Below, piece by piece: positions 1,036 through 41,536 of a DNA stretch of 64,000 nucleotides. The stretch is taken from assembly GCA_965226495.1 (NCBI GenBank), contig OZ245365.1, positions 1,184,001 to 1,248,000 on the forward strand. The letters run 5' to 3'. The DNA comes from Candidatus Marinacidobacterales bacterium (GTDB lineage: Bacteria > Acidobacteriota > Vicinamibacteria > Marinacidobacterales > DATDRI01). The position numbers and the translations under genes were made by a program. Each line of letters opens with the position of its first letter. Position 1 is the first letter of the stretch. The notes below the pieces were generated by a model. The model was not told the origin of the DNA and ran no database searches. It worked only from the letters and a program-made list of their open reading frames with translations.

Positions 1036-1369
1036 GACTTCCTCCTGCGAGCCGCTGGCTTCGAGGCGGAGTTTCCCCCATTGCGAGTGGATAATTCAAC
1101 ATCGTCAGCGGCATGGATGGCAAGAGTGGCGTCTTAGTTGTTCATTCCTAATGGTTTAGGACTAGCCGCCATGCGTCGCCGAAAACGGCGTGTTCTACGC
1201 GTTCGCTCCGCCTGACAGGCCCTCAAGAGGGTGCTATCATCTATTTAAGCACCCAAGTCGACTCATTAGAACGACCGTCGTTCGGTAGATTGTGTTCCTG
1301 GCGGGCCGTTCGAGGCTTGCCCGGGCTGCCCCTCGGCAGTCCGGAAACACGGGGACGCGCATCGGCCCG

Positions 1370-3481
1370 ATGAATATCAGAGTCAAAGGCAAGGTAAACA
1401 ATAAAGGGCAGTTCGCCGGCGTCCTGGGGGCGCTCGGGGTGGCGCGGAAGACCGGCTGTCTCGTGGTGACTTCAGAGGACGTCGAGAGAAAACTCTACTT
1501 CGAGGGCGGAGCTATTGTCGCCGCGTCGTCGAGCGCCGCGGACGAATCGTTCGGACACGTTTTGGTCGAGCGGGCGATCATCAAACAGCACAATCTCGCC
1601 AACGCCAAGGAACTCGGTACCAACCAGGACTCGCTGCTCGGAAGCCGATTGGTGGAAGTGGGTGCCTTGTCCGAGGACGATGTTCGGAATGCTGTTCGAT
1701 TGAAAGTCCGGGACACTCTCACCGAAATACTTGCCGTCCCCGGCGGTCAGTACGAGTTCACTGACGATCGACTGCCAACGAAGGACAAGGTGCCGGTGTT
1801 TCTCGATCCGGGCGAGTTGATGGGGGGAGCGAAGGTTCTCCAAGAGGGACAGCCTTCGACGACTGAACCCTCCGAACATCCGAGCGAGCCGGCGAGCGCG
1901 ATGCCGGCGAGCGCGATGCCAGAAGAGCCCGAACCGACGCTGTCCGGCTCTGGCTCCGAACCGACGCTGTCCGGCTCTGGCTCCGAACCGACGCTGTCCG
2001 ACTCCGGCTCCGAACCGACGCTGTCCGGCTCCGACTCCGAATCGACGCTTGTCGACCGACGCGACCCCGATGTCTCCGATCGTCGTGACCCGGAGGTTCC
2101 CGATCGTCGGGACATCGCTAGCACCAAGGATCTGAGCGAGGGGTCTCCCGACCGGCGCGATCCAGCGACATCGGACCGACGCGATTCTTTGGAGCCCGAT
2201 CGTCGCGACCCGAAGGTGAACAAAATGCTCGAGATGTTTGCCGACTTCCACCTCGGAGGCGATTCGTCTGCTTCTTCTGATTCGGCTGCCTCGGAGCCGA
2301 CGTTGAGCGGGACCGAGTCGACCCTGACGGGTGGGACGGCCTATGAAGAGTCGGAGCCCACGATCCGTGAAACAACACCGTCCTACACTGAGCCTGCGCC
2401 GACACTCGTCAACGCGGAGCCAGAGCCAAGTGAGCCGGAGTCGAAGCCGAGTACCGGGAGCTATGCGAAGCCGGCGACAGGCAGTTATGCGAGACCAACT
2501 ACTGGGAGCTATCCCAGACCGACTACCGGAAGTCATGCCCGCCCCCATACCGGCGTACACGACAAACCGAAAAGCAACACGCCTCTCATTGGTGCCGCGG
2601 CGGTCGCAGCTGTCGTGATTCTCGGAGGGGGTTCCTGGTTGTTTCTCGGTGGTGATTCGGAAGAGCCGGCGACGGGCACGCGCCTCGAAGTGCCTACGAT
2701 AGAGACCGCGCCGACTCAGCCTCAGACCCAGCCCCAGTCCCAATCAACGTCCCTACCGAAAAAGACCGCTGAAGCACCGGCACCGAAACAACGGCAGGCG
2801 CCGCCCAAGAGGGAAAAAGCGCCGGCGACCACTGCTCCCAAGCCAGCTCCGTCAACACCCGTCAAGAAGCAAGAGGCGCCGGTCAAGAAACAAGAGGCTC
2901 CAACTGCTACGCGGCAGGCTTCGGTGAAGACAGCGCAAAACGTCGTTCCGAATCCTCCACCTGTAACGGGGAGCGCGGGGTCGACTCCACCACCCGCGGC
3001 AAAGACGGCGCCGGCCGCAACCACGACTACGAAGACTGCTAGCGAGTCGGCTAACCCACCGGCCGCGGAAGCGAAAGCGGAACCGAGCGAAGCGGGGTGG
3101 GACAACGCTGTTTTCGCGCCCACGAGGGCTACCGTTGTGACGAGCAAGCCGGCGGCTCCCGAAGCTAACGCCGTGAAAGTGGGGGATCTGGTCCAGCCTG
3201 GCCCAGAGGTCATCGACCCGGTTCTCATCGAGCATCCCAAGCTGAAGTTTCCGAAGGCCGCCAAGAAGCAGAAAATTCAGGAAATGGTGGTTCGCCTTCG
3301 CGTTCTCGTCGACGAGAACGGCAAAGTACTGGAAGCGAAACTAGACAAACCAGTCGGAAACGGCTTCGACGAATCAGCCGTCCAAGTAGCCCGCCAAGCG
3401 CGATTCATCCCGGCGACCCACGGTAGAGTCCAGGTCAAAATGTGGACTGAGCTTCCACTTCATTACCTCCAAAAGAAATAG
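1370..3481 (+). CDS. TonB-family protein with N-terminal DUF4388/PATAN-like domain, repeat-rich linker, one TM helix and TonB C-terminal domain
   Basis: N-term KTGCLVV..RKLYFEGGAIVAASS; TM segment LIGAAAVAAVVILGGGSWLFL; Pro/Lys/Ala-rich spacer; C-term FPKAAKKQ..VRLRVLVDENGKV..FDESAVQVARQARFIPA. Confidence 0.8.
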   Translation: MNIRVKGKVNNKGQFAGVLGALGVARKTGCLVVTSEDVERKLYFEGGAIVAASSSAADESFGHVLVERAIIKQHNLANAKELGTNQDSLLGSRLVEVGALSEDDVRNAVRLKVRDTLTEILAVPGGQYEFTDDRLPTKDKVPVFLDPGELMGGAKVLQEGQPSTTEPSEHPSEPASAMPASAMPEEPEPTLSGSGSEPTLSGSGSEPTLSDSGSEPTLSGSDSESTLVDRRDPDVSDRRDPEVPDRRDIASTKDLSEGSPDRRDPATSDRRDSLEPDRRDPKVNKMLEMFADFHLGGDSSASSDSAASEPTLSGTESTLTGGTAYEESEPTIRETTPSYTEPAPTLVNAEPEPSEPESKPSTGSYAKPATGSYARPTTGSYPRPTTGSHARPHTGVHDKPKSNTPLIGAAAVAAVVILGGGSWLFLGGDSEEPATGTRLEVPTIETAPTQPQTQPQSQSTSLPKKTAEAPAPKQRQAPPKREKAPATTAPKPAPSTPVKKQEAPVKKQEAPTATRQASVKTAQNVVPNPPPVTGSAGSTPPPAAKTAPAATTTTKTASESANPPAAEAKAEPSEAGWDNAVFAPTRATVVTSKPAAPEANAVKVGDLVQPGPEVIDPVLIEHPKLKFPKAAKKQKIQEMVVRLRVLVDENGKVLEAKLDKPVGNGFDESAVQVARQARFIPATHGRVQVKMWTELPLHYLQKK
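1931..2212 (+). repeat. Intragenic tandem repeats: 27-bp EPTLSGSGS x4, then DRRD(P) x6
   Basis: gaaccgacgctgtccggctctggctcc units at 1931-2038; DRRD motifs visible in the translation. Confidence 0.9.
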
Positions 3482-21059: not shown

Positions 21060-21623
21060 GTGTTTTCCCTCGAGCTGGTCGCCGTCGTCCTCACACTGGT
21101 GGCCGTCTACCTGACGGCGCGCCAGATCATCTGGTGCTGGCCGCTCGCCATGGTCAGCGTCGTCCTGTACGCAGCGGTCTTCTACGACGTCCGACTGTAC
21201 GCCGATATGGGGCTACAGGGTCTGTACTTTGGGCTGGCCGCCTACGGCTGGTGGGCGTGGCTGCGCGGCGGTGAGGATCATGGCGAGCTCGAGGTTTCCC
21301 TGACCTCGAGCCGGACGCGGGTGGTGCTGGTGGTGGTCGCGACACTCGGCGGGATTTTGCTGGGTCAGATCCTGATGCGCTTCACCAACGCGTCGCTGCC
21401 ATTCATGGATTCGATGCTCACCTCGTTTAGCATCGCGGCCCAGTGGATGCAGACCCGAAAGCTACTAGAATCCTGGCTGGTGTGGCTTGCCGTTGATGTT
21501 TTTTACGTCGGCATGTTCTTGTACAAGGGGCTCTACCCGACGGCGGGACTGTACGCCGCCTTTCTTGTCCTCGCTGTAATGGGTTTCACCGAGTGGCGAC
21601 GCTCGATGCGAGGCGCGCGATGA
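21060..21623 (+). CDS. pnuC: PnuC-family transporter (thiamine-type by context)
   Basis: LYADMGLQ, PFMDS and ESWLVWLAVD PnuC motifs. Confidence 0.9.
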   Translation: MFSLELVAVVLTLVAVYLTARQIIWCWPLAMVSVVLYAAVFYDVRLYADMGLQGLYFGLAAYGWWAWLRGGEDHGELEVSLTSSRTRVVLVVVATLGGILLGQILMRFTNASLPFMDSMLTSFSIAAQWMQTRKLLESWLVWLAVDVFYVGMFLYKGLYPTAGLYAAFLVLAVMGFTEWRRSMRGAR

Positions 21624-22144
21624 TCCGCGTCGTGGTGACCGGCTCCGAATGCACCGGCAAGACGAAGCTCGCCGAGGCGATTGCCACACACTACGAGACC
21701 GTCTGGGTCCCGGAGTTCGCTCGCCAGTTCGTGATCGACAAAGGCGCCGCTCCCGTGTACGAAGATGTCGAGACCATCGCCCGCGGCCAAATCGCCCTAG
21801 AGGACCACAAAGCCGGCGAGGCATCCAGCCTACTTCTTCAAGATACCGATCTACTCAGCACCATCGTCTATAGCCGCCACTACTTCGGTGATTGCCCCCA
21901 CTGGATCGAGGAGGCTTTCGAGAAACGAGCCGCCGGCCTATACCTTCTAGCCGGCATTGACGTTCCCTGGGTACCCGAAGGGGAGCAACGCGACCGCGGA
22001 GACCGGCGCGAAGAGATGCACGAGCTATTCCGGAGCGCCCTGGTCGATCGCCGCCTGACCTATGCCGAGATAGGTGGGGCAAGGGGTGAGCGATTGGAAG
22101 CGGCGGTGTCGCGGATCGACCAGCTTCTTAGTCGAGGCCGCTGA
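21620..22144 (+). CDS. NadR-type ribosylnicotinamide-kinase-like P-loop protein
   Basis: TGSECTGKTKL, VPEFAR, QDTD and DVPWV..QRD motifs; ATGA overlap with pnuC. Confidence 0.85.
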   Translation: MIRVVVTGSECTGKTKLAEAIATHYETVWVPEFARQFVIDKGAAPVYEDVETIARGQIALEDHKAGEASSLLLQDTDLLSTIVYSRHYFGDCPHWIEEAFEKRAAGLYLLAGIDVPWVPEGEQRDRGDRREEMHELFRSALVDRRLTYAEIGGARGERLEAAVSRIDQLLSRGR

Positions 22145-22279: not shown

Positions 22280-22789
22280 CTAACGCACGTCGTCAACTGT
22301 TAGGCGAGGGGCTTTGTCTCCCTCCGGGGCGTGGAAAACTCCTGACACGCTCACCTCAGTGTCGTTGTCCAGCTTCTCAAGCTCGTCCGAGGCCTTATCA
22401 CCCTCCAGGAGGATTAGCATATCCAGACTGGACTCATACCCGACTCGGAGCGCTAGGGCATTCTCCACCCTCTCCAATGTGCCCTTAACGTCAACCTTCA
22501 CTTTGCCCGCTGAGAAGCCAGCGGCCTCGACGGCCTTGGCAATCTGTGCCGGATCGAAAGAGTGGTCCGGTTCGGCAAGGATCACGGTCTCGCCCGTGTC
22601 GAGACTCATCACTTCAGCGTCCTGAACGCCATCCAGGCGTTCCAGAGCCGTCTCGGCCCCGTGTGCTCACAACCCTCACGTCATGCCCTGAATCCAGGTT
22701 CGGGCTTCTTGGACTTGGGCAAAGGCTACTCCCGACAATGCGTGGCAGAGAATAATTGTACTTAGTGATAGGAGCGTTCTCACTTTCAT
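22280..22789 (-). CDS. Secreted HMA-domain heavy-metal-binding protein with a UxxU motif (two in-frame TGA read as Sec), 169 aa
   Basis: GAGAGGA RBS; MKVRTLLSLSTIILCHALSGVAFA signal peptide; IQGMT-TGA-GL-TGA-AHGAETALERLDGV..IAKAVEAAGF, in frame with the listed 22280-22612 ORF. Confidence 0.85.
22624..22661 (-). promoter_or_regulatory. Two tandem SECIS-like hairpins
   Basis: CGGGGCC-GAGAC-GGCUCUG (22661-22643) and GAACGCC-UGGAU-GGCGUUC (22642-22624). Confidence 0.6.
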
Positions 22790-22810
22790 GTCGTTAGGTC
22801 CTCTCTTTTG

Positions 22811-23662
22811 CTAGTGAAGGTATCGAAACCCTGTTACGAACACCCAGTCTTTATTCAACCGATGACCGTTCAACTCCTGGTACACGGGGAGTTGGACAGA
22901 CAACTCCAATATCAAGTTGCGCCGCAAGAAGACTTCAACTCCCGGCGAGACAAAAACGGACTCGCCACCCGTTGCAAGGATCTCCGTCCCGTCACGGTTC
23001 GACCGGCTCTCAATGAAGGAGTTGACTTCCAACACGACGAATAGGTCGTTTCGCTCCGGGTACCGGAGGAGGCGATACATGACGGATGCGTCCAGCTGCA
23101 GAAGGTTCCCCGCCTTGAACCCGCTCTCTTTCGTCGTTGCTGTCCACTGGAAATCGGTGTTGACGAACCAACTAGTCGTTGCGTGGGTAAAAATAAGCCC
23201 CTGAAGAAGGTCCGTCGCTCCGGTCGAGAAACCCTCTTGGCCCCAAGGTACCTTCACTCCCAAGAAACCCGCCAGCCGAGAAAAACCACCAGGCCGGTTT
23301 TTCGCATAGAGCCCGTCGTACTGCACGAAAAACATTGGGTCCGCCAAGCTCGTGTCTCTTGGTTGGCCGCCCGGTGAGCCGCTGACTACGGGTACCATAG
23401 CGACCCACATGAGGTGGCGTGGTAGACCGAAGACGAACGTGTTTTCCCAGGCCATCACCGTGTGGTCTCGGTCACGCTCGGGGCGACCGTCCGTGACATC
23501 TAGCGACGGAGGAGATCGTTTCAGGACTCGCCAATCAGACCGATAGAGAAAGTTGCGGACGAACAAAGTTCTAGCCCCGGGGGAGTTGATTTGCCCAGAT
23601 AGGGGCAAGTGCTGAAGCAACAAAACGGACGCCAGGACAAATCGGAGACAGATTAGTCGCAC
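22811..23662 (-). CDS. Putative outer-membrane beta-barrel (MetA/phenol-degradation transporter-like)
   Basis: Signal peptide, alternating beta-strand pattern, GVKVPWG, TGGESVFVSPGV and a C-terminal GFRYLH. Confidence 0.6.
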   Translation of the reverse strand: MRLICLRFVLASVLLLQHLPLSGQINSPGARTLFVRNFLYRSDWRVLKRSPPSLDVTDGRPERDRDHTVMAWENTFVFGLPRHLMWVAMVPVVSGSPGGQPRDTSLADPMFFVQYDGLYAKNRPGGFSRLAGFLGVKVPWGQEGFSTGATDLLQGLIFTHATTSWFVNTDFQWTATTKESGFKAGNLLQLDASVMYRLLRYPERNDLFVVLEVNSFIESRSNRDGTEILATGGESVFVSPGVEVFLRRNLILELSVQLPVYQELNGHRLNKDWVFVTGFRYLH

Positions 23663-23787
23663 GGCGTAAGTCTAGTTACCCGGCCAGAGGTTACCCAAAC
23701 AACACCTACCCTCAGGGTTTCGCAACTCGCAAGCCGAGCGCCCAGCTTCCACGTGTGCATGGATGCGCGATTCGGCAGCGTCGGCGT

Positions 23788-23835
23788 CACACCGAAGCCG
23801 GCGGCGACGGCTCCGAAACCGCTCCATTTGGACAT
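23788..23835 (-). pseudogene. Possible 5' remnant of a MerT-like membrane transporter
   Basis: Strong AGGAG RBS right after the merR stop; MSKWSGFGAVAAGFG resembles the MerT first TM helix, but similarity ends before the expected CC pair. Confidence 0.35.
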
Positions 23836-23844
23836 GACATCTCC

Positions 23845-24463
23845 TCAGGCTTTCTCGTCGGATACGTCGGCAATCACCGGGCATCTCGAACCCTGGTCAA
23901 TCGCCTGAGCGCATTGGTCCCGGTAGTTAGACATTTGTCGATGGAAGCGCTTCATTTCTTTACCCTGCTGGGCGATCTCGACTATTTTCTTGTCGAGGAT
24001 GCCCAACACGCGACGGCAGCTCCCGGGGTTGTCCGGCCGGAGGCCCAGGAGTACCGAGATCTCGTCGAGAGCGAAACCAAAACCCTGCGCGCGTTTGATG
24101 AAACTCAGACGCTGCTCAGCTTTGGGCCCATAAAGGCGGAGAGCCTGATCTGGAACGCCGCTTCATTTCTTTACCCTGCTGGGCGATCTCGACTATTTTC
24201 TTGTCGAGGATGCCCAACACGCGAAGCTCCCGGGGTTGTCCGGCCGGAGGCCCAGGAGTACCGAGATCTCGTCCGAAACCAAAACCCTGCGCGCGTTTGA
24301 TGAAACTCAGACGCTGCTCAGCTTTGGGCCCATAAAGGCGGTAGCCTGATCTGGAACGCCGGCTGGGTTTGAGAATGCCGCGCCGCTCGTAGTACCGGAG
24401 GGTTTCGCGGTTCACACCGGCCCGCAGAGCTAATTCACCGATGAGAAGCGAGTCGTTCTTCAT
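23845..24463 (-). CDS. merR: Heavy-metal-responsive MerR-family regulator, disrupted by an internal ~200-bp tandem duplication
   Basis: IGELA..TLRYYERRG..GYRLY HTH. The reconstructed 138-aa protein has Cys82, Cys117 and Cys127 and ends RCPVIADVSDEKA*. Confidence 0.8.
23948..24361. repeat. Imperfect tandem duplication inside merR
   Basis: 23948-24158 matches 24159-24361; the right copy lacks 4-bp and 5-bp stretches, and the left copy has a 1-bp indel. Confidence 0.95.
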
Positions 24464-24481
24464 TCGATTGCTCTTGGCGCC

Positions 24482-24513
24482 ATTGTAAACCTTTGACTCG
24501 GGTACAGGGTCAA
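24482..24513 (-). promoter_or_regulatory. MerR-type long-spacer promoter/operator
   Basis: TTGACC-20 bp-TACAAT with an imperfect dyad ACCCTGTAC-CCGA-GTCAAAGGT. Confidence 0.8.
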
Positions 24514-24594
24514 GCCCTTTTTTACAACAATCGAGGCTTGCTAGCTATTTCTGGGGGGCGAATGTAAACGGTTCAAATTGGAGGGTTTGTCGCT

Positions 24595-24685: not shown

Positions 24686-26197
24686 CTAGGCGCCGCTGGG
24701 TACCTGCAATTCCGGCATCGGTGCAGTGTGAAACAAGCGCCGGCAGGGCTTCGCTATCCACCTGGCCACCGTCGTCGCCCGGTTCACACGGGCACTGTCC
24801 GTCGCAATCCCTGTGCTGGCGTACATTTGCCGGTAGAGCTTGGAAAGCAAGACGAAGGCGAGACGTGCGCGCAACGTTGGAGTACATCGAGAGCGCTTCC
24901 AGACTGGGCCCAAGCTATAGAAACGATCCCAGACCGACTGCGTGCGCGACCTGATCTCCTCGGCCGACAGCACTGGATGGTCGCTGTAGATTTTCGGCCG
25001 AAGATTTTGAGGAATCAACCAGTGGCGGGTCAATGGGATACCCCCAATGCGCGTCGGGTCATCCTTCATCGAAGCTTCCCAATTGTTGAAATCTACCGTC
25101 CCCGGGAACGGGGTCATCATCACGAACTGCGCAAAAGTCAGATCGGCCTCCTGCGCGAGGGCCGCGGTAGCGTCGAAGGTCTCCGCGCGGTCCGTGGGCA
25201 GACCAAAGATGAACGAGCCCAAGACGTGCACTCCGTGCTTACGAAACTTGCGAAGCTGCAGCACTAAGTCTGCGCCCGAGGTGTTGAAATTCTTGTAGAC
25301 CGCTTTCAGCCCTTCGGCAGTAACAGACTCGACTCCGACGAGAGCTCCTTTGATGTTGGCTTTGCGCATGGCATCCAGAAAATCGGGATCGTCGGCGACT
25401 TCCATCGTGATCTGAGTAAAGAACACCATATTGGCGGGCAACTTGGCCATTTGCGCCATCAACTGGAACCGATCTTCGCGTATTGATTTGAGCTCTTGGA
25501 GCCGGTGCACATCGTTGCGACTTTCGGCAAGCCTCAAGTCCTCTAACGTAACCGGGTAGAAATTGTCGTCCGCCAGGGCGATAAATCGAAATCCGAGCCG
25601 TCGGAGCTCGACAATTTCTTCGATGACGGCGTCGGACGGGCGCTGGCGGGGTTTTTGGCCGTCCGTGCGCCAGACGGAGCAAAAAGAGCAATGCTTGGGG
25701 CATCCGCGCACCGTTTGAACGGAGGCCCACATATAGCTGTTGGGAGGAATCAGTTCCCAACGGGCGGGCTTGAACTGGTCGGCCTCGATCTTTCCCGCGT
25801 CGTACAATCTTTCGGGCTTTCCTTTCGCGCAGTCGGCCAGGACGGTGGCCCAAACGACGTCCCCGTCGCCCTTGACGACGCCGTTTGCGCCGCCCAAATC
25901 GAATGCTTCCTCGGGGTAAAGCGTGGCGTGAATGCCTCCATAGATCACATGGGCCCCTCGCTCCTGCGCCATGCGGCCGACCTCGTACCCGCGCAGCGCG
26001 TTGCCGGTATGGATGCTGATGCCGACCACATCGCCGTGCTGAATGTCGGAGGGGTCGATTTGCTCTAGCGTTTCGTCGACAATCACCGGGTCTCCGTACT
26101 CTCGGGGGGTCGCGCCGGCAAGTACGAAGAGCCATCGGGGGGTTATAACGCCTATTCCAAAGGAGATATGGCTGGGGTTGACTAGATGCACTCTCAT
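24686..26197 (-). CDS. B12-binding-domain radical SAM protein
   Basis: VIYGGIHAT, RGCPKHCSFC (CxxxCxxC), DDNF, GVES and TPFPGT motifs. Confidence 0.92.
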   Translation of the reverse strand: MRVHLVNPSHISFGIGVITPRWLFVLAGATPREYGDPVIVDETLEQIDPSDIQHGDVVGISIHTGNALRGYEVGRMAQERGAHVIYGGIHATLYPEEAFDLGGANGVVKGDGDVVWATVLADCAKGKPERLYDAGKIEADQFKPARWELIPPNSYMWASVQTVRGCPKHCSFCSVWRTDGQKPRQRPSDAVIEEIVELRRLGFRFIALADDNFYPVTLEDLRLAESRNDVHRLQELKSIREDRFQLMAQMAKLPANMVFFTQITMEVADDPDFLDAMRKANIKGALVGVESVTAEGLKAVYKNFNTSGADLVLQLRKFRKHGVHVLGSFIFGLPTDRAETFDATAALAQEADLTFAQFVMMTPFPGTVDFNNWEASMKDDPTRIGGIPLTRHWLIPQNLRPKIYSDHPVLSAEEIRSRTQSVWDRFYSLGPVWKRSRCTPTLRARLAFVLLSKLYRQMYASTGIATDSARVNRATTVARWIAKPCRRLFHTAPMPELQVPSGA

Positions 26198-40825: not shown

Positions 40826-41347
40826 CTATTTCCGCAGCGGCGGAAGCTCTTCGCCCTCGGGGACGAACTTCAGCGCCACGCCGTTATTGCACCACCTTTG
40901 GCCGGTCGGTTGGGGACCGTCATTAAATATGTGACCCTGATGGCCACCACAGCGAATGCAGTGATATTCCGTCCGTGGCAGGACGAGTTTGAAATCTTTC
41001 TTCGTACCGGTGCGGCCGTCGATCGGACGGAAGAAGCTGGGCCAGCCGGTGCCACTATCGAACTTCGTTTTCCACGCAAACAGAGGGAGGTAGCAGGCGG
41101 CGCAAATGAAGGTTCCCTTGCGTTTCTCTTTGTCCAAGGGGCTTGTGAAGGCCCGCTCCGTGCCGTCTTTGAAGAGCACTCGATAGGCATCTTCGTCGAG
41201 GAGCTCGCGCCACTCGTCCTTCGATTTCTCGAGCTTCTTGATTTCCTCTTGAGAGGATCCCATGGGTATGCCTTCTTTCGTTTGTACCAACCATGCGGGG
41301 AGCACAAGCCCAACACCCGCGGCCTTGAAGAAGTCTCGCCTGTTCAA
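40826..41347 (-). CDS. msrB: Methionine-R-sulfoxide reductase with Tat signal (Cys form)
   Basis: NRRDFFK after an AGGAGG RBS, GTERAF, GTGWPSF and GHIFNDGP..RWCNN. Confidence 0.95.
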   Translation of the reverse strand: MNRRDFFKAAGVGLVLPAWLVQTKEGIPMGSSQEEIKKLEKSKDEWRELLDEDAYRVLFKDGTERAFTSPLDKEKRKGTFICAACYLPLFAWKTKFDSGTGWPSFFRPIDGRTGTKKDFKLVLPRTEYHCIRCGGHQGHIFNDGPQPTGQRWCNNGVALKFVPEGEELPPLRK

Positions 41348-41536
41348 TGAGCACCTCCTGACATGAGTCATTTGCTCGCCGCCCAATTATAGCGCGAGGG
41401 GAAGCGTCCACCGTATCTGCCAATTTCGCGGCGTCTTAGCGGTGGGAGGGAAAGTGATGCGAGCGTCGGCGATTTTCTTCTTGTCGTGAATGGTGCCATC
41501 ACCTATACTCCGGGGCGACAACTGAATACGGACAGT

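Follow-up and report, generated by a model that had tools for sequence, protein, structure and literature searches.

A putative MerR-type operon pairing an outer-membrane barrel with a UxxU selenoprotein in a Candidatus Marinacidobacterales genome

Introduction

Selenocysteine (Sec) is mostly known from redox enzymes, and not as a ligand in exported metal binders. The window analyzed here, 64,000 nt of a Candidatus Marinacidobacterales genome (assembly GCA_965226495.1, contig OZ245365.1, positions 1,184,001 to 1,248,000 of the forward strand), holds on its minus strand a merR gene followed by the gene of a predicted outer-membrane barrel and by that of an exported HMA protein with TGA codons at both metal-binding Cys positions. 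What would a metal sensor control through a barrel and a selenium-based binder? The question touches a gap in the mer model, as mercury-type resistance has, in its reviewed form, no outer-membrane component of its own, and the accessible text of a mer review lists none (PMC8261052). A literature search found no paper on the pairing of a barrel with an HMA selenoprotein. An initial annotation, made from the letters of the window, had proposed a metal-induced envelope system that sequesters or relays metal instead of reducing it.

Results

Promoter and gene order

All features described here lie on the minus strand. A MerR-type promoter/operator occupies 24482-24513 and consists of TTGACC, a 20-nt spacer with an imperfect dyad, and TACAAT. 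This pattern, which the initial annotation had singled out, is present as an exact match and is the only site in the window with at most one mismatch; 0.06 sites are expected by chance, and 6 of 100 shuffled windows gave at least one match. The dyad forms an 8-pair stem at 24492-24514 if G-T pairs are allowed, and its arms, ACCCTGTACCC and GAGTCAAAGGT, are complementary at 7 of 11 positions by hand count. Both marks of a MerR-family promoter, 19-20 nt between the hexamers and a dyad operator, are found here. The 32-nt promoter differs at two positions, both mid-dyad, from that of metagenome locus L098, whose MerR is 86% identical to the window MerR; the sequence upstream has diverged.

Downstream, every item in the proposed gene order was found: merR (start at 24463), a short MerT-like stub ORF (23653-23835), the barrel gene (22811-23662), and the HMA gene (22280-22789). 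The last two are separated by 21 nt, which hold a GAGAGGA Shine-Dalgarno-like motif (seen by eye, unscored). We lean towards the view that merR, a dead merT-like remnant, the barrel, and the HMA selenoprotein make up a real, autoregulated MerR-type operon. Contigs from an RNA library cover parts of it; they may derive from DNA and give a weak hint of transcription. The RNA runs X19 and X20 have small shares of the window's sequence words, from which we take nothing on habitat or expression.

The merR gene and its sensor type

A tandem duplication (TRF 23948-24361, period 202, 2.0 copies) interrupts merR in the assembly, its copies differing solely by indels of 1, 5, and 4 nt. The 5' part of the gene (24274-24463) encodes the HTH domain with the beginning of the dimerisation helix, and the 3' part (23845-24071) the dimerisation helix and the metal-binding loop, with C82, C117, and C127. 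Between them lie the extra 202 nt (24072-24273), in which deletions of 5 and 4 nt and a 1-nt change break the frame, leaving a 115-aa ORF (24116-24463; PF13411 at 1.2e-14, PF00376 at 1.5e-13) and an out-of-frame C-terminal piece (23845-24132; PF09278 at 7.4e-14). The extra copy is seen only in GCA_965226495.1. In each of the four public runs compared with the window (from three DNA studies and one RNA library), contigs run across the junction 24071-24274 with the 202 nt skipped, and the bin 24132-24215 has zero depth; the duplication is also absent from the near-identical metagenome contig L097. In nature, merR is intact. Were the break in the window merR real, that strain would have a silent operon.

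A database protein of 138 aa (P0009) shows the intact form. It agrees with the C-terminal piece at all 95 residues (100% identity), and its N-terminal part is the same reading as the 5' ORF of the window. Its Cys residues at 82, 117, and 127, together with the run contigs that lack the duplication, bear out the MerR that the initial annotation had reconstructed. These residues align with the Hg-binding C79, C114, and C123 of Bacillus MerR (PDB 4ua1), one at the helix N-terminus and two in the loop, as in Hg-sensing MerR proteins, but the loop from Cys117 to Cys127 has one residue more than that of Hg-MerR, which counts against a mercury assignment. CueR-type Cu(I) sensors have a two-Cys loop, and at the N-terminal end of their dimerisation helix stands a Ser, not a Cys. 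P0009 departs from that type with its Cys at 82, and its score against the CueR model TIGR02044 (83.5 bits) is under the cut-off of 147.4. The best NCBIfam match is the Hg-MerR model TIGR02051 (107.3 bits, under the equivalog cut-off of 150.85), with 103.3 bits for ZntR (NF007069, cut-off 143) and 84.0 for CadR-PbrR. As no equivalog cut-off is reached, the family models, judging by sequence, assign this MerR no metal type.

A MerT-like remnant and the absence of mer enzymes

The stub had been called MerT-like, and its first 16 codons do agree, at 15 of 16 residues, with the opening of a MerT-like gene of 112 aa that is intact in L098. Homology is confined to these first 48 nt (23788-23835); the rest of the ORF has none and is probably non-coding spacer. 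GC by codon position is.56/.62/.66 in the stub, and second-position GC is.41-.48 in the neighboring genes. The L098 gene (L098:763-1101) matches the Pfam MerT model PF02411 at E 6.1e-6 (26.7 bits, under the cut-off of 32.9). It was solely through this close relative that the homology surfaced: the stub ORF has no Pfam or NCBIfam match, its best tblastn match to MerT/MerC proteins of more distant loci (E 0.08) lies on the opposite strand, and an HMM of five CC/C-U proteins scores it below 0. MerT-like CC or C-U forms stand upstream of the barrel in five of the 23 loci read. In the source genome, a six-frame search with PF02411 gave no match and the CC/C-U HMM none at E<=0.01, so that of an inner-membrane Hg transporter (MerT, MerC, or MerF) the 16-codon remnant is what remains. 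The genome looks to have kept merely a reduced form of an ancestral module that included a MerT-like inner-membrane protein, and that protein makes the family look like a mer-type inward relay to which an outer-membrane stage has been added.

The initial annotation had reported no merA and no P-type ATPase in the window, and neither a Pyr_redox nor an E1-E2 ATPase domain was found among its 53 ORFs of at least 90 aa. Across the genome, the best match to the MerA model TIGR02053 scores 407.1 bits, under the cut-off of 454.45; the lack of an above-cut-off MerA and of any MerT match fits the proposal that metal is handled in some way other than reduction.

The predicted HMA selenoprotein

The HMA gene (22280-22789) encodes 169 aa comprising a signal peptide, an HMA domain (PF00403 at 2.6e-11), and an OB-like C-terminal domain. 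As first described, it is of the UxxU kind: the metal site reads GMT-U-GL-U-A, with TGA at codons 38 (22676-22678) and 41 (22667-22669), the columns at which homologues carry the two HMA Cys residues. The best NCBIfam match is NF041115, UxxU_metal_bind (44.7 bits, under the cut-off of 95), and the site that defines that family, an HMA domain with Sec codons at both CxxC Cys, is present as GMTUGLUA. The MerP model TIGR02052 gives 33.7 bits, under 92.55. UxxU HMA selenoproteins as such are already catalogued (NF041115); selenoproteome reviews, in their accessible parts, list UxxU as a 'putative mercuric reductase' with two Sec (PMC13188914, PMC9312934).

The structure model of the protein is confident (pLDDT 90.4, pTM 0.81). 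Its HMA domain matches 4a48 and 1fvq (Z 8.3), whereas residues 93-169 have only weak OB-fold matches (Z 5.3-6.1), from which we draw no function; the alignment of this C-terminal domain has no invariant or near-invariant Cys, His, or Met column. An in-frame, assembly-specific 9-nt insert in the same domain (22433-22441) encodes GYES where relatives have P; it is left out in all four runs and absent from six of six database relatives and from the homologous locus in the relative G003. A contig from the RNA library spans 22531-22771, including both TGAs, with zero differing letters.

Two SECIS-like hairpins (22644-22660 and 22624-22642) follow the TGAs, in keeping with a stem-loop shortly after UGA. 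In a consensus fold of 12 UxxU genes, five of the 11 pairs have changes on both sides and 88.6% of cells are paired, compared to 36-51% with the partners slid; the covariation score was reached by none of 500 shuffles. The UxxC gene set gives 96.2% paired cells. Part of this conservation is owed to the protein, since the alignments are of coding sequence. The genome holds selA (570.1 bits), selB (377.7), and selD (332.6), each above its cut-off, and two tRNA genes typed SeC(tca) by ARAGORN, one canonical and the second with acceptor-stem mismatches. The selD gene itself carries one TGA. Taken on sequence grounds, UGA in the HMA gene appears to be read as Sec rather than Cys.

The outer-membrane barrel

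What had been noted as a beta-barrel-like gene (22811-23662) encodes 283 aa with a signal peptide, matches PF13557 at 26.9 bits (cut-off 22), and is predicted by AlphaFold to fold into 12 long strands (pLDDT 84.2), which together would place it in the COG4313/PF13557 class. Foldseek matches the model to FapF (5o65; E 9.5e-11, TM 0.67, with E values down to 3.3e-11) and to the COG4313 channel 4rl8 (E 1.5e-8, TM 0.66). A strain variant in run X8 has 23 synonymous and seven non-synonymous differences among the 30 listed changes, a pattern that shows purifying selection at the sequence level. Two points weigh against a role in metal passage. The barrel alignment has no invariant or near-invariant Cys, His, or Met column, and, according to the consulted part of their description (PMC4493636), the presumed cargo of COG4313 channels is hydrophobic molecules and not ions. 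Among the literature matches listed under the names of these families, titles and the openings of abstracts gave no metal link. With 114 representatives at E<=1e-10 in a set of 1.84 billion proteins, the subfamily is a small one. In its tree, the window barrel groups with mer-linked barrels of UxxU and CxxC loci, outside a copper-linked UxxC clade.

Gene pairing across the phylum

The initial annotation had made its reading depend on whether barrel and HMA(U/C) homologues co-occur with each other and with merR. In a survey of the phylum, a partner consisting of an HMA and a C-terminal domain is strictly adjacent to the barrel in 25 of 29 loci, with nine UxxU, ten UxxC, and six CxxC sites. A MerR-family regulator lies within 1.5 kb in eight of the 29 barrel loci and within 5.5 kb in ten of the 20 that were widened, so that both associations stand. 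The paired loci adjoin MerR-type or CsoR-like regulators, often with mercury or copper genes. Mer genes (Pfam MerT, MerC, or a reductase-type ORF of MerF-HMA-Pyr_redox architecture) adjoin the modules L038, L063, L083, L084, and L087. Four further loci in the order carry the pair behind CsoR-like repressors, which in four relatives have a C..Y..C pattern without His; the regulators vary, which counts against the mercury-like reading. So does the UxxC branch, which adjoins Cu P-type ATPases, multicopper oxidases, CopB, and Cus-like genes.

When the survey was turned round to start from metagenomic MerR homologues, the barrel appeared in two of 70 loci (L104 and L106). Most of the distant MerRs there adjoin P-type ATPase HMA domains; with 45% identity or less, they are different regulators. 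In the homologous locus of G003, the barrel is interrupted by an IS and the HMA gene carries a TAA as well as a frameshift, which also tells against a maintained function. The TAA was considered as a recoded codon and rejected, the gene being frameshifted and separated from the barrel by the IS. The database proteins of the HMA family that were found start after the TGAs. Gene callers truncate such selenoproteins, which has kept the family hidden.

Discussion

A proposed reduced mer-like envelope module

On balance, and with some reserve, we favor the reading that the operon is a mer-like envelope module in reduced form, with a three-Cys MerR switching on the genes of an outer-membrane channel and of a periplasmic metal binder of the diselenolate kind. 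A MerR dimer would occupy the dyad within the 20-nt spacer, which is over-long; binding of a thiophilic metal ion would realign the -35 and -10 hexamers and turn on merR and the two envelope genes. In the outer membrane, the barrel would form a 12-stranded channel like those of COG4313 and FapF, and the exported HMA-OB protein would hold metal between two selenolates where MerP and CopZ use two thiolates. A mercury-like ion would be the favored inducer, with Pb/Cd/Zn or Cu/Ag as alternatives. In relatives metal would pass inwards, as in mer, because a MerT-like CC/C-U protein follows merR; the pair in the window would most likely act as a periplasmic high-affinity sink coupled to outer-membrane passage. 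Both the direction of metal flow and a contact between the barrel and the HMA protein are presumed in this proposal. A point against it is that two Sec per metal ion are expensive for a stoichiometric trap.

A bolder version, which we hold to be rather unlikely, is that barrel and UxxU protein bind each other in an outer-membrane complex, a selenium-based gate for metal hand-over or a surface-displayed diselenolate trap. If true, it would be an outer-membrane stage of resistance without counterpart in the reviewed mer, cop, and cus systems, and repeated switching from Cys to Sec would tune affinity to the metal and to the oxidizing periplasm.

Alternative explanations

The rival that survives best is a Cu(I)/Ag(I) module, in which a periplasmic selenium-based chaperone would work with an outer-membrane outlet, by analogy to CusF or CopC with CopB or CusC. 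Gene content speaks for it in the relatives: UxxC forms stand behind CsoR-like repressors and beside Cu P-type ATPases with YHS/HMBD domains, they also adjoin multicopper oxidase, CopB, HlyD_D23/OEP/ACR_tran, and zf_CopZ genes, and at one UxxU locus (L082) a multicopper oxidase lies 4 kb away. The HMA domain finds its best structural matches in copper proteins (4a48, 1fvq), and the module-adjoining MerRs of L054, L062, and L063 are without the first Cys, like monovalent-metal sensors. The window MerR, in contrast, has its Cys at 82 and scores lower with CueR than with MerR and ZntR models, while the remnant behind merR is MerT-like and the barrel lies outside the copper-linked clade. For the window, a copper function would seem improbable on this evidence.

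It is less likely still that the barrel is a translocator, exporting or anchoring the HMA-OB protein at the surface in the manner of FapF or an autotransporter, with metal trapped outside the cell. The best structural match is indeed a protein-secretion channel (FapF), the COG4313 fold is called autotransporter-like by its authors in the portion consulted (PMC4493636), the two genes are strictly adjacent wherever paired, and a C-terminal domain without conserved ligands could be a docking or passenger element. The partner, however, is predicted to be compact, folded, and two-domain, and in relatives the inner-membrane partners of MerT type suggest that metal is handed over in the periplasm.

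Decay fares no better, and we doubt it to a similar degree: the locus would be a functionless leftover in the source genome, with merR broken, merT lost, and the rest drifting. The duplication and frameshift in merR, the merT-like remnant, the assembly-specific 9-nt insertion in the HMA gene, and the destroyed locus in G003 (IS and point lesions) could all be read this way. Yet merR is intact in the four runs, L097, and P0009; neither long ORF is disrupted and both TGAs are in place; strain differences in the barrel are mostly synonymous (23 versus seven among the 30 listed); the promoter is conserved in L098; and RNA-library contigs cover the genes. That the TGAs are not Sec, and give a CxxC product through the second UCA-anticodon tRNA (whose acceptor-stem mismatches could mean that it is something else) or no product through termination, is highly improbable, given TGA exactly at the first or both Cys columns in 19 of 25 partner genes, covarying hairpins at a SECIS-like distance, selA, selB, and selD above cut-off, and the catalogued UxxU HMA selenoproteins (NF041115; listed in the accessible parts of PMC13188914 and PMC9312934).

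The gene pair is conserved in 25 of 29 surveyed barrel loci, and in 19 of these 25 the partner is a selenoprotein, which speaks for a way of handling soft metals in the envelope that is widespread. The CxxC, UxxC, and UxxU forms are a natural series for what selenium adds to metal binding, and the window adds a minimal form composed of sensor, channel, and binder, without the inward transporter.

Comparison with known systems

Mer operons (Tn501/Tn21, and the Bacillus RC607 type with merR first) likewise have a three-Cys MerR acting at a promoter with an over-long spacer and a dyad. Their MerP, like the window protein, is an HMA protein with a signal peptide and a GMT-x-xx-x motif, and the likeness extends to the MerT-like gene that immediately follows merR in relatives and survives as a remnant in the window. 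The differences are that the window genome has no MerA and no functional MerT, that its module adds an outer-membrane barrel, and that its binder adds an OB-like domain and selenocysteines to what MerP has. The copper envelope systems CopA/CopB, PcoA/PcoB, and CusCFBA with CusF also combine an outer-membrane protein with a small periplasmic binder under a metal sensor, and UxxC relatives sit inside such clusters. Their folds differ, however: in L035 and L089, the Pfam model for CopB (PF05275) hits ORFs other than the window-type barrel, and the window ORFs include neither an efflux pump nor an oxidase.

Among single proteins, the COG4313/PF13557 channels (Pput2725, 4rl8) and FapF (5o65) resemble the window barrel in their 12 strands and fold. 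Known members are linked to hydrophobic-molecule uptake or amyloid secretion, in the part of the source consulted (PMC4493636). NF041115 shares with the window protein the HMA fold and the replacement of both metal-binding Cys residues by Sec. It is a model of 74 positions, to which the window protein adds a signal peptide, a 77-residue OB-like domain, and a barrel partner gene.

A compact gene cluster with an outer-membrane barrel

The window sits in a single 6.34-Mb contig, and in it a compact minus-strand cluster is bounded on one side by a convergent NadR-like AAA_28 gene (21593–22144, plus strand) and on the other by a radical-SAM gene (24686–26197, minus strand). Its promoter, TTGACC-20 nt-TACAAT at 24482–24513 (minus strand), is an exact match and remains the window's sole match to the pattern when one mismatch is tolerated (0.06 expected by chance), and the 20-nt spacer holds an imperfect dyad, as the initial annotation described. 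Next come merR (start at 24463), a stub ORF of 60 codons (23653–23835), a barrel gene of 283 codons (22811–23662) and last an HMA gene of 169 codons (22280–22789) with TGA at codons 38 and 41, all on the minus strand; this anatomy confirms the gene arrangement that had been described for the locus, a probable MerR-controlled operon of a barrel and a UxxU HMA protein. The 21-nt gap between the barrel and HMA genes contains a Shine-Dalgarno-like GAGAGGA (read by eye). A scan of 53 window ORFs, each 90 aa or longer, found neither a P-type ATPase nor a pyridine-nucleotide disulphide reductase, in keeping with the earlier statement that merA and P-type ATPase genes are absent from the window. A SelR/MsrB-domain ORF of 186 aa lies at 40826–41386 (minus strand). 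In L098, a relative's locus with an 86% identical MerR, the 32-nt promoter departs from the window's at just two places, which are both central in the dyad, and the sequence upstream has diverged.

The barrel passes the PF13557 cut-off, and its AlphaFold model (28 family rows; pLDDT 84.2) has 12 long strands. Foldseek places FapF first (E 3.3e-11 to 5.1e-10, TM 0.61–0.67) and the COG4313 channel Pput2725 next (E 1.5e-8, TM 0.66). The COG4313 channel is described as a 12-stranded barrel whose lumen is occluded by the N-terminus, with uptake of hydrophobic molecules proposed (PMC4493636), and among the matches listed for the literature on the barrel's families no title or abstract opening makes a link to metals. 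The barrel alignment has no invariant or near-invariant Cys, His or Met column. The subfamily is small: in a set of 1.84 billion proteins it has 469 representatives at E<=0.001, of which 114 reach E<=1e-10.

Probable selenocysteine at the metal site

The HMA gene product has a signal peptide and an HMA domain with the metal site G-M-T-U-G-L-U-A, U being an in-frame TGA taken as selenocysteine (Sec). Its model (pLDDT 90.4, pTM 0.81) predicts an HMA fold for residues 25–92 (Z 8.3 to 4a48 and 1fvq; 6.3 to MerP, 1afi) and a five-strand OB-like domain with weak structural matches (Z 5.3–6.1) for residues 93–169; no ligand residue is invariant or near-invariant in the alignment of this C-terminal domain.

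The source genome has selB (377.7 bits), selA (570.1 bits) and selD (332.6 bits) above cut-offs, and since selD (G000:C1:5697778–5698710, locus L012) contains one in-frame TGA, selenophosphate synthetase is probably itself a selenoprotein. ARAGORN finds two SeC(tca) tRNA genes outside the window, 2.3 kb apart: the first (G000:C1:173953–174050) is canonical, with an 8-bp acceptor stem and a long extra arm, and the second (176351–176447), with mismatches in its acceptor stem, could be either a decayed copy or a tRNA of some other type. Homologues of the HMA protein have Cys or TGA at exactly the two TGA columns of the window gene. Two hairpins lie 3' of the TGAs in 12 UxxU genes, with 88.6% of cells paired versus 36%–51% for slid partners, both-side changes in 5 of 11 pairs and a covariation score reached by none of 500 shuffles; one hairpin 3' of the TGA in 13 UxxC genes has 96.2% of cells paired and both-side changes in three of six pairs. 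Because both sets are coding regions of related genes, the controls overstate the signal somewhat. On this genomic and comparative support the TGA codons of the HMA gene would probably be read as Sec.

A relative of the HMA protein in the database (P0004, 78% identical by BLASTP) is called as a protein that begins M-C-A-H-G. This start suggests a UxxC form, with Cys replacing the second Sec of the window protein, and a switch between U and C seems to occur between near relatives.

The regulator and the stub

A tandem repeat of period 202 (23948–24361) duplicates the middle of merR and splits the gene into a 115-aa ORF and an out-of-frame C-terminal piece. When contigs from three DNA runs of three studies and one RNA library were placed on the region, all four runs joined 24071 to 24274, with zero depth in the bin 24132–24215; an undivided merR is also present in a near-identical metagenome contig (L097). 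The gene is broken in the assembly and intact in nature. The repeat copies are identical apart from indels of 1, 5 and 4 nt, and because an otherwise identical repeat differs by indels only, we infer that the duplication is more likely an error of local assembly than a product of evolution. Nine nucleotides of the assembly, at 22433–22441, are missing from all four runs, from six database relatives and from G003, a genome of the same family.

The intact MerR is present in the database as P0009 (138 aa); it matches the C-terminal piece with 100% identity, and its Cys residues 82, 117 and 127 are precisely those of the MerR reconstructed in the initial annotation. These align with the Hg-binding C79/C114/C123 of the Bacillus MerR 4ua1 (best solved relative, E 9.1e-10), the metal-binding loop being one residue longer than in 4ua1. 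NCBIfam ranks Hg-MerR first (107.3 bits) and ZntR second (103.3 bits), and none of its equivalog cut-offs is reached. Given this alignment and these scores, the sensor is, to judge from its sequence, a heavy-metal MerR without assigned metal specificity. In the MerR family, sensors of divalent metals typically carry Cys at the helix N-terminus.

The stub has no match from Pfam, NCBIfam or comparison with MerT/MerC proteins of distant loci, and its GC by codon position does not resemble that of genuine genes in the region. The gene after merR in L098 is intact, codes for 112 aa and has a Pfam MerT match (E 6.1e-6, under the gathering score) and the motif LCCLP; 15 of its first 16 residues are identical to the start of the stub. 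This shared start identifies the stub as what is left of the 5' end of a merT-like gene. The label "MerT-like" given to it earlier was right, and the gene is dead in the source genome. No MerT-like protein is found elsewhere in that genome by an HMM of MerT-like proteins, nor does PF02411 match. A small membrane protein precedes the barrel in 5 of 23 loci, with a CC motif in L048, L053 and L067 and a C-U motif in L057 and L064. The latter two are MerT-like, with a Cys-TGA pair where relatives have CC (L057 ~2474–2770, minus strand, PC-U-ALP; L064 ~1175–1474, plus strand, IC-U-TLP), which points to a putative second selenoprotein in these modules. Two further loci of the 23 (L065, L072), both UxxC modules, have a Cys-rich secreted peptide just upstream of the barrel, short and of the form MACCKKMAG-C-HMG...HPCC.

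Recurrence and maintenance of the pair

Barrel profile matches at E<=1e-8, from a profile built on six barrels, occur in 56 of 401 genomes of the phylum and 39 of 228 genera (source genome included). The HMA protein is matched in 11 of 61 relatives' genomes, again with the source included; in four of the 11 (G020, G026, G030, G024) the gene order is CsoR-like repressor, barrel homologue and HMA gene, the last of UxxU or UxxC form. We surveyed the 29 best non-own barrel loci with 1.5 kb of flank each, searching six-frame translations, TGA read through, with an HMM of eight partner proteins. The expected co-occurrence of barrel and HMA homologues was borne out: 25 of the 29 have a partner with HMA and C-terminal domains (9 UxxU, 10 UxxC, 6 CxxC), the four negative loci being L061, L073, L076 and L051, the last a 1.7-kb locus of the unpublished genome G107 that stops at a contig end. 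A MerR-family regulator with a MerR-DNA-bind domain lies in the 1.5-kb flanks of 8/29 loci. When flanks were widened to 5.5 kb for 20 of the 25 partner-positive loci (L055, L059, L072, L074 and L075 were left out, contig ends being among the reasons), 10 of the 20 had a MerR-family gene, both flank widths taken together. An NHL-repeat propeller gene is also found in the 1.5-kb flanks of 8/29 loci; this six-bladed propeller is a recurrent third partner, mostly of CxxC forms (L050, L056, L058, L060, L062, L063, L067, L071, L036).

A second strain, seen in the public run X8, differs from the window barrel at 30 listed positions (23 synonymous, 7 not) and from the HMA gene at 9 (5 synonymous, 4 not), three more differences existing beyond those listed. 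RNA-library contigs span both TGAs, parts of the barrel and HMA genes, and the stretch from the merR stop through the stub to the barrel start; they may be of DNA origin and are no proof of a single transcript. In G003, whose HMA protein is 82% identical, only the final 13 codons of the barrel gene are left, with transposase genes in place of all that lay upstream; the HMA gene has lost 1 nt and reads TAA where the second Sec codon would be.

Mercury-like or copper-like metal

The inducing metal, the direction of flow and the contact between barrel and binder are features of the module that we infer. For the window operon a mercury-like divalent soft metal is favoured as inducer, on the basis of gene context, the MerT-like remnant and the three-Cys MerR. 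Genes of mercury type lie beside related modules: L038 has a MerT-like protein, L063 and L083 each have MerC, and L084 has a MerT-HMA fusion. L087 combines a divergent merR with MerT, an HMA protein and an ORF of reductase type (MerF-HMA-Pyr_redox). Copper or silver is a serious rival. L035 has a Cu P-type ATPase, a multicopper oxidase and CopB beside its module; a P-type ATPase occurs in L037 and L081, a multicopper oxidase in L082 and L089 and CopB in L089, and HlyD_D23, OEP and ACR_tran, counted as copper-type, lie beside the modules of L081 and L084. CsoR-like repressors before four pairs (L032:3735–4040, L033:7413–7733, L035:4711–5073, L037:4672–5094) align with C46, Y71 and C75 at the sensing positions, a two-Cys form that lacks the His of copper CsoR.

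A maximum likelihood tree of 28 barrels, excluding L051, L053, L060, L071, L073, L075 and L076 (unpublished, over-long, fused or partial ORFs), groups 10 of the 11 barrels linked to UxxC proteins into a single clade (support 88/98), which contains the copper-linked loci; the remaining one (G237) is placed elsewhere, at the end of a very long branch. The rest of the tree mixes UxxU with CxxC barrels, and there the window barrel is sister to the UxxU-linked barrel of G433 (support 99/95). The deep order is unsure because of two long branches.

Comparison with known systems

A review of mer systems lists, in the part available, MerP and inner-membrane transporters only (PMC8261052). Pairing of a barrel with an HMA protein is not described, by title or abstract opening, among the matches listed for open literature on mer/MerP, outer-membrane barrels, selenocysteine metallochaperones and acidobacterial selenoproteins. 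The parts of the module are of known kinds; their combination was not found in print within those matches. The best NCBIfam match of the HMA protein is NF041115, 'UxxU_metal_bind' (44.7 bits against a cut-off of 95), a family that two selenoproteome reviews describe, in the parts available, as UxxU and as carrying two Sec (PMC13188914, PMC9312934), so the UxxU-HMA concept is already known. Compared with that family, the window protein is longer, exported and barrel-linked, and its score falls short of membership. The locus is best read as a mer-like module of the envelope in reduced form, bearing selenocysteine and comprising a sensor, an outer-membrane channel and a periplasmic binder.
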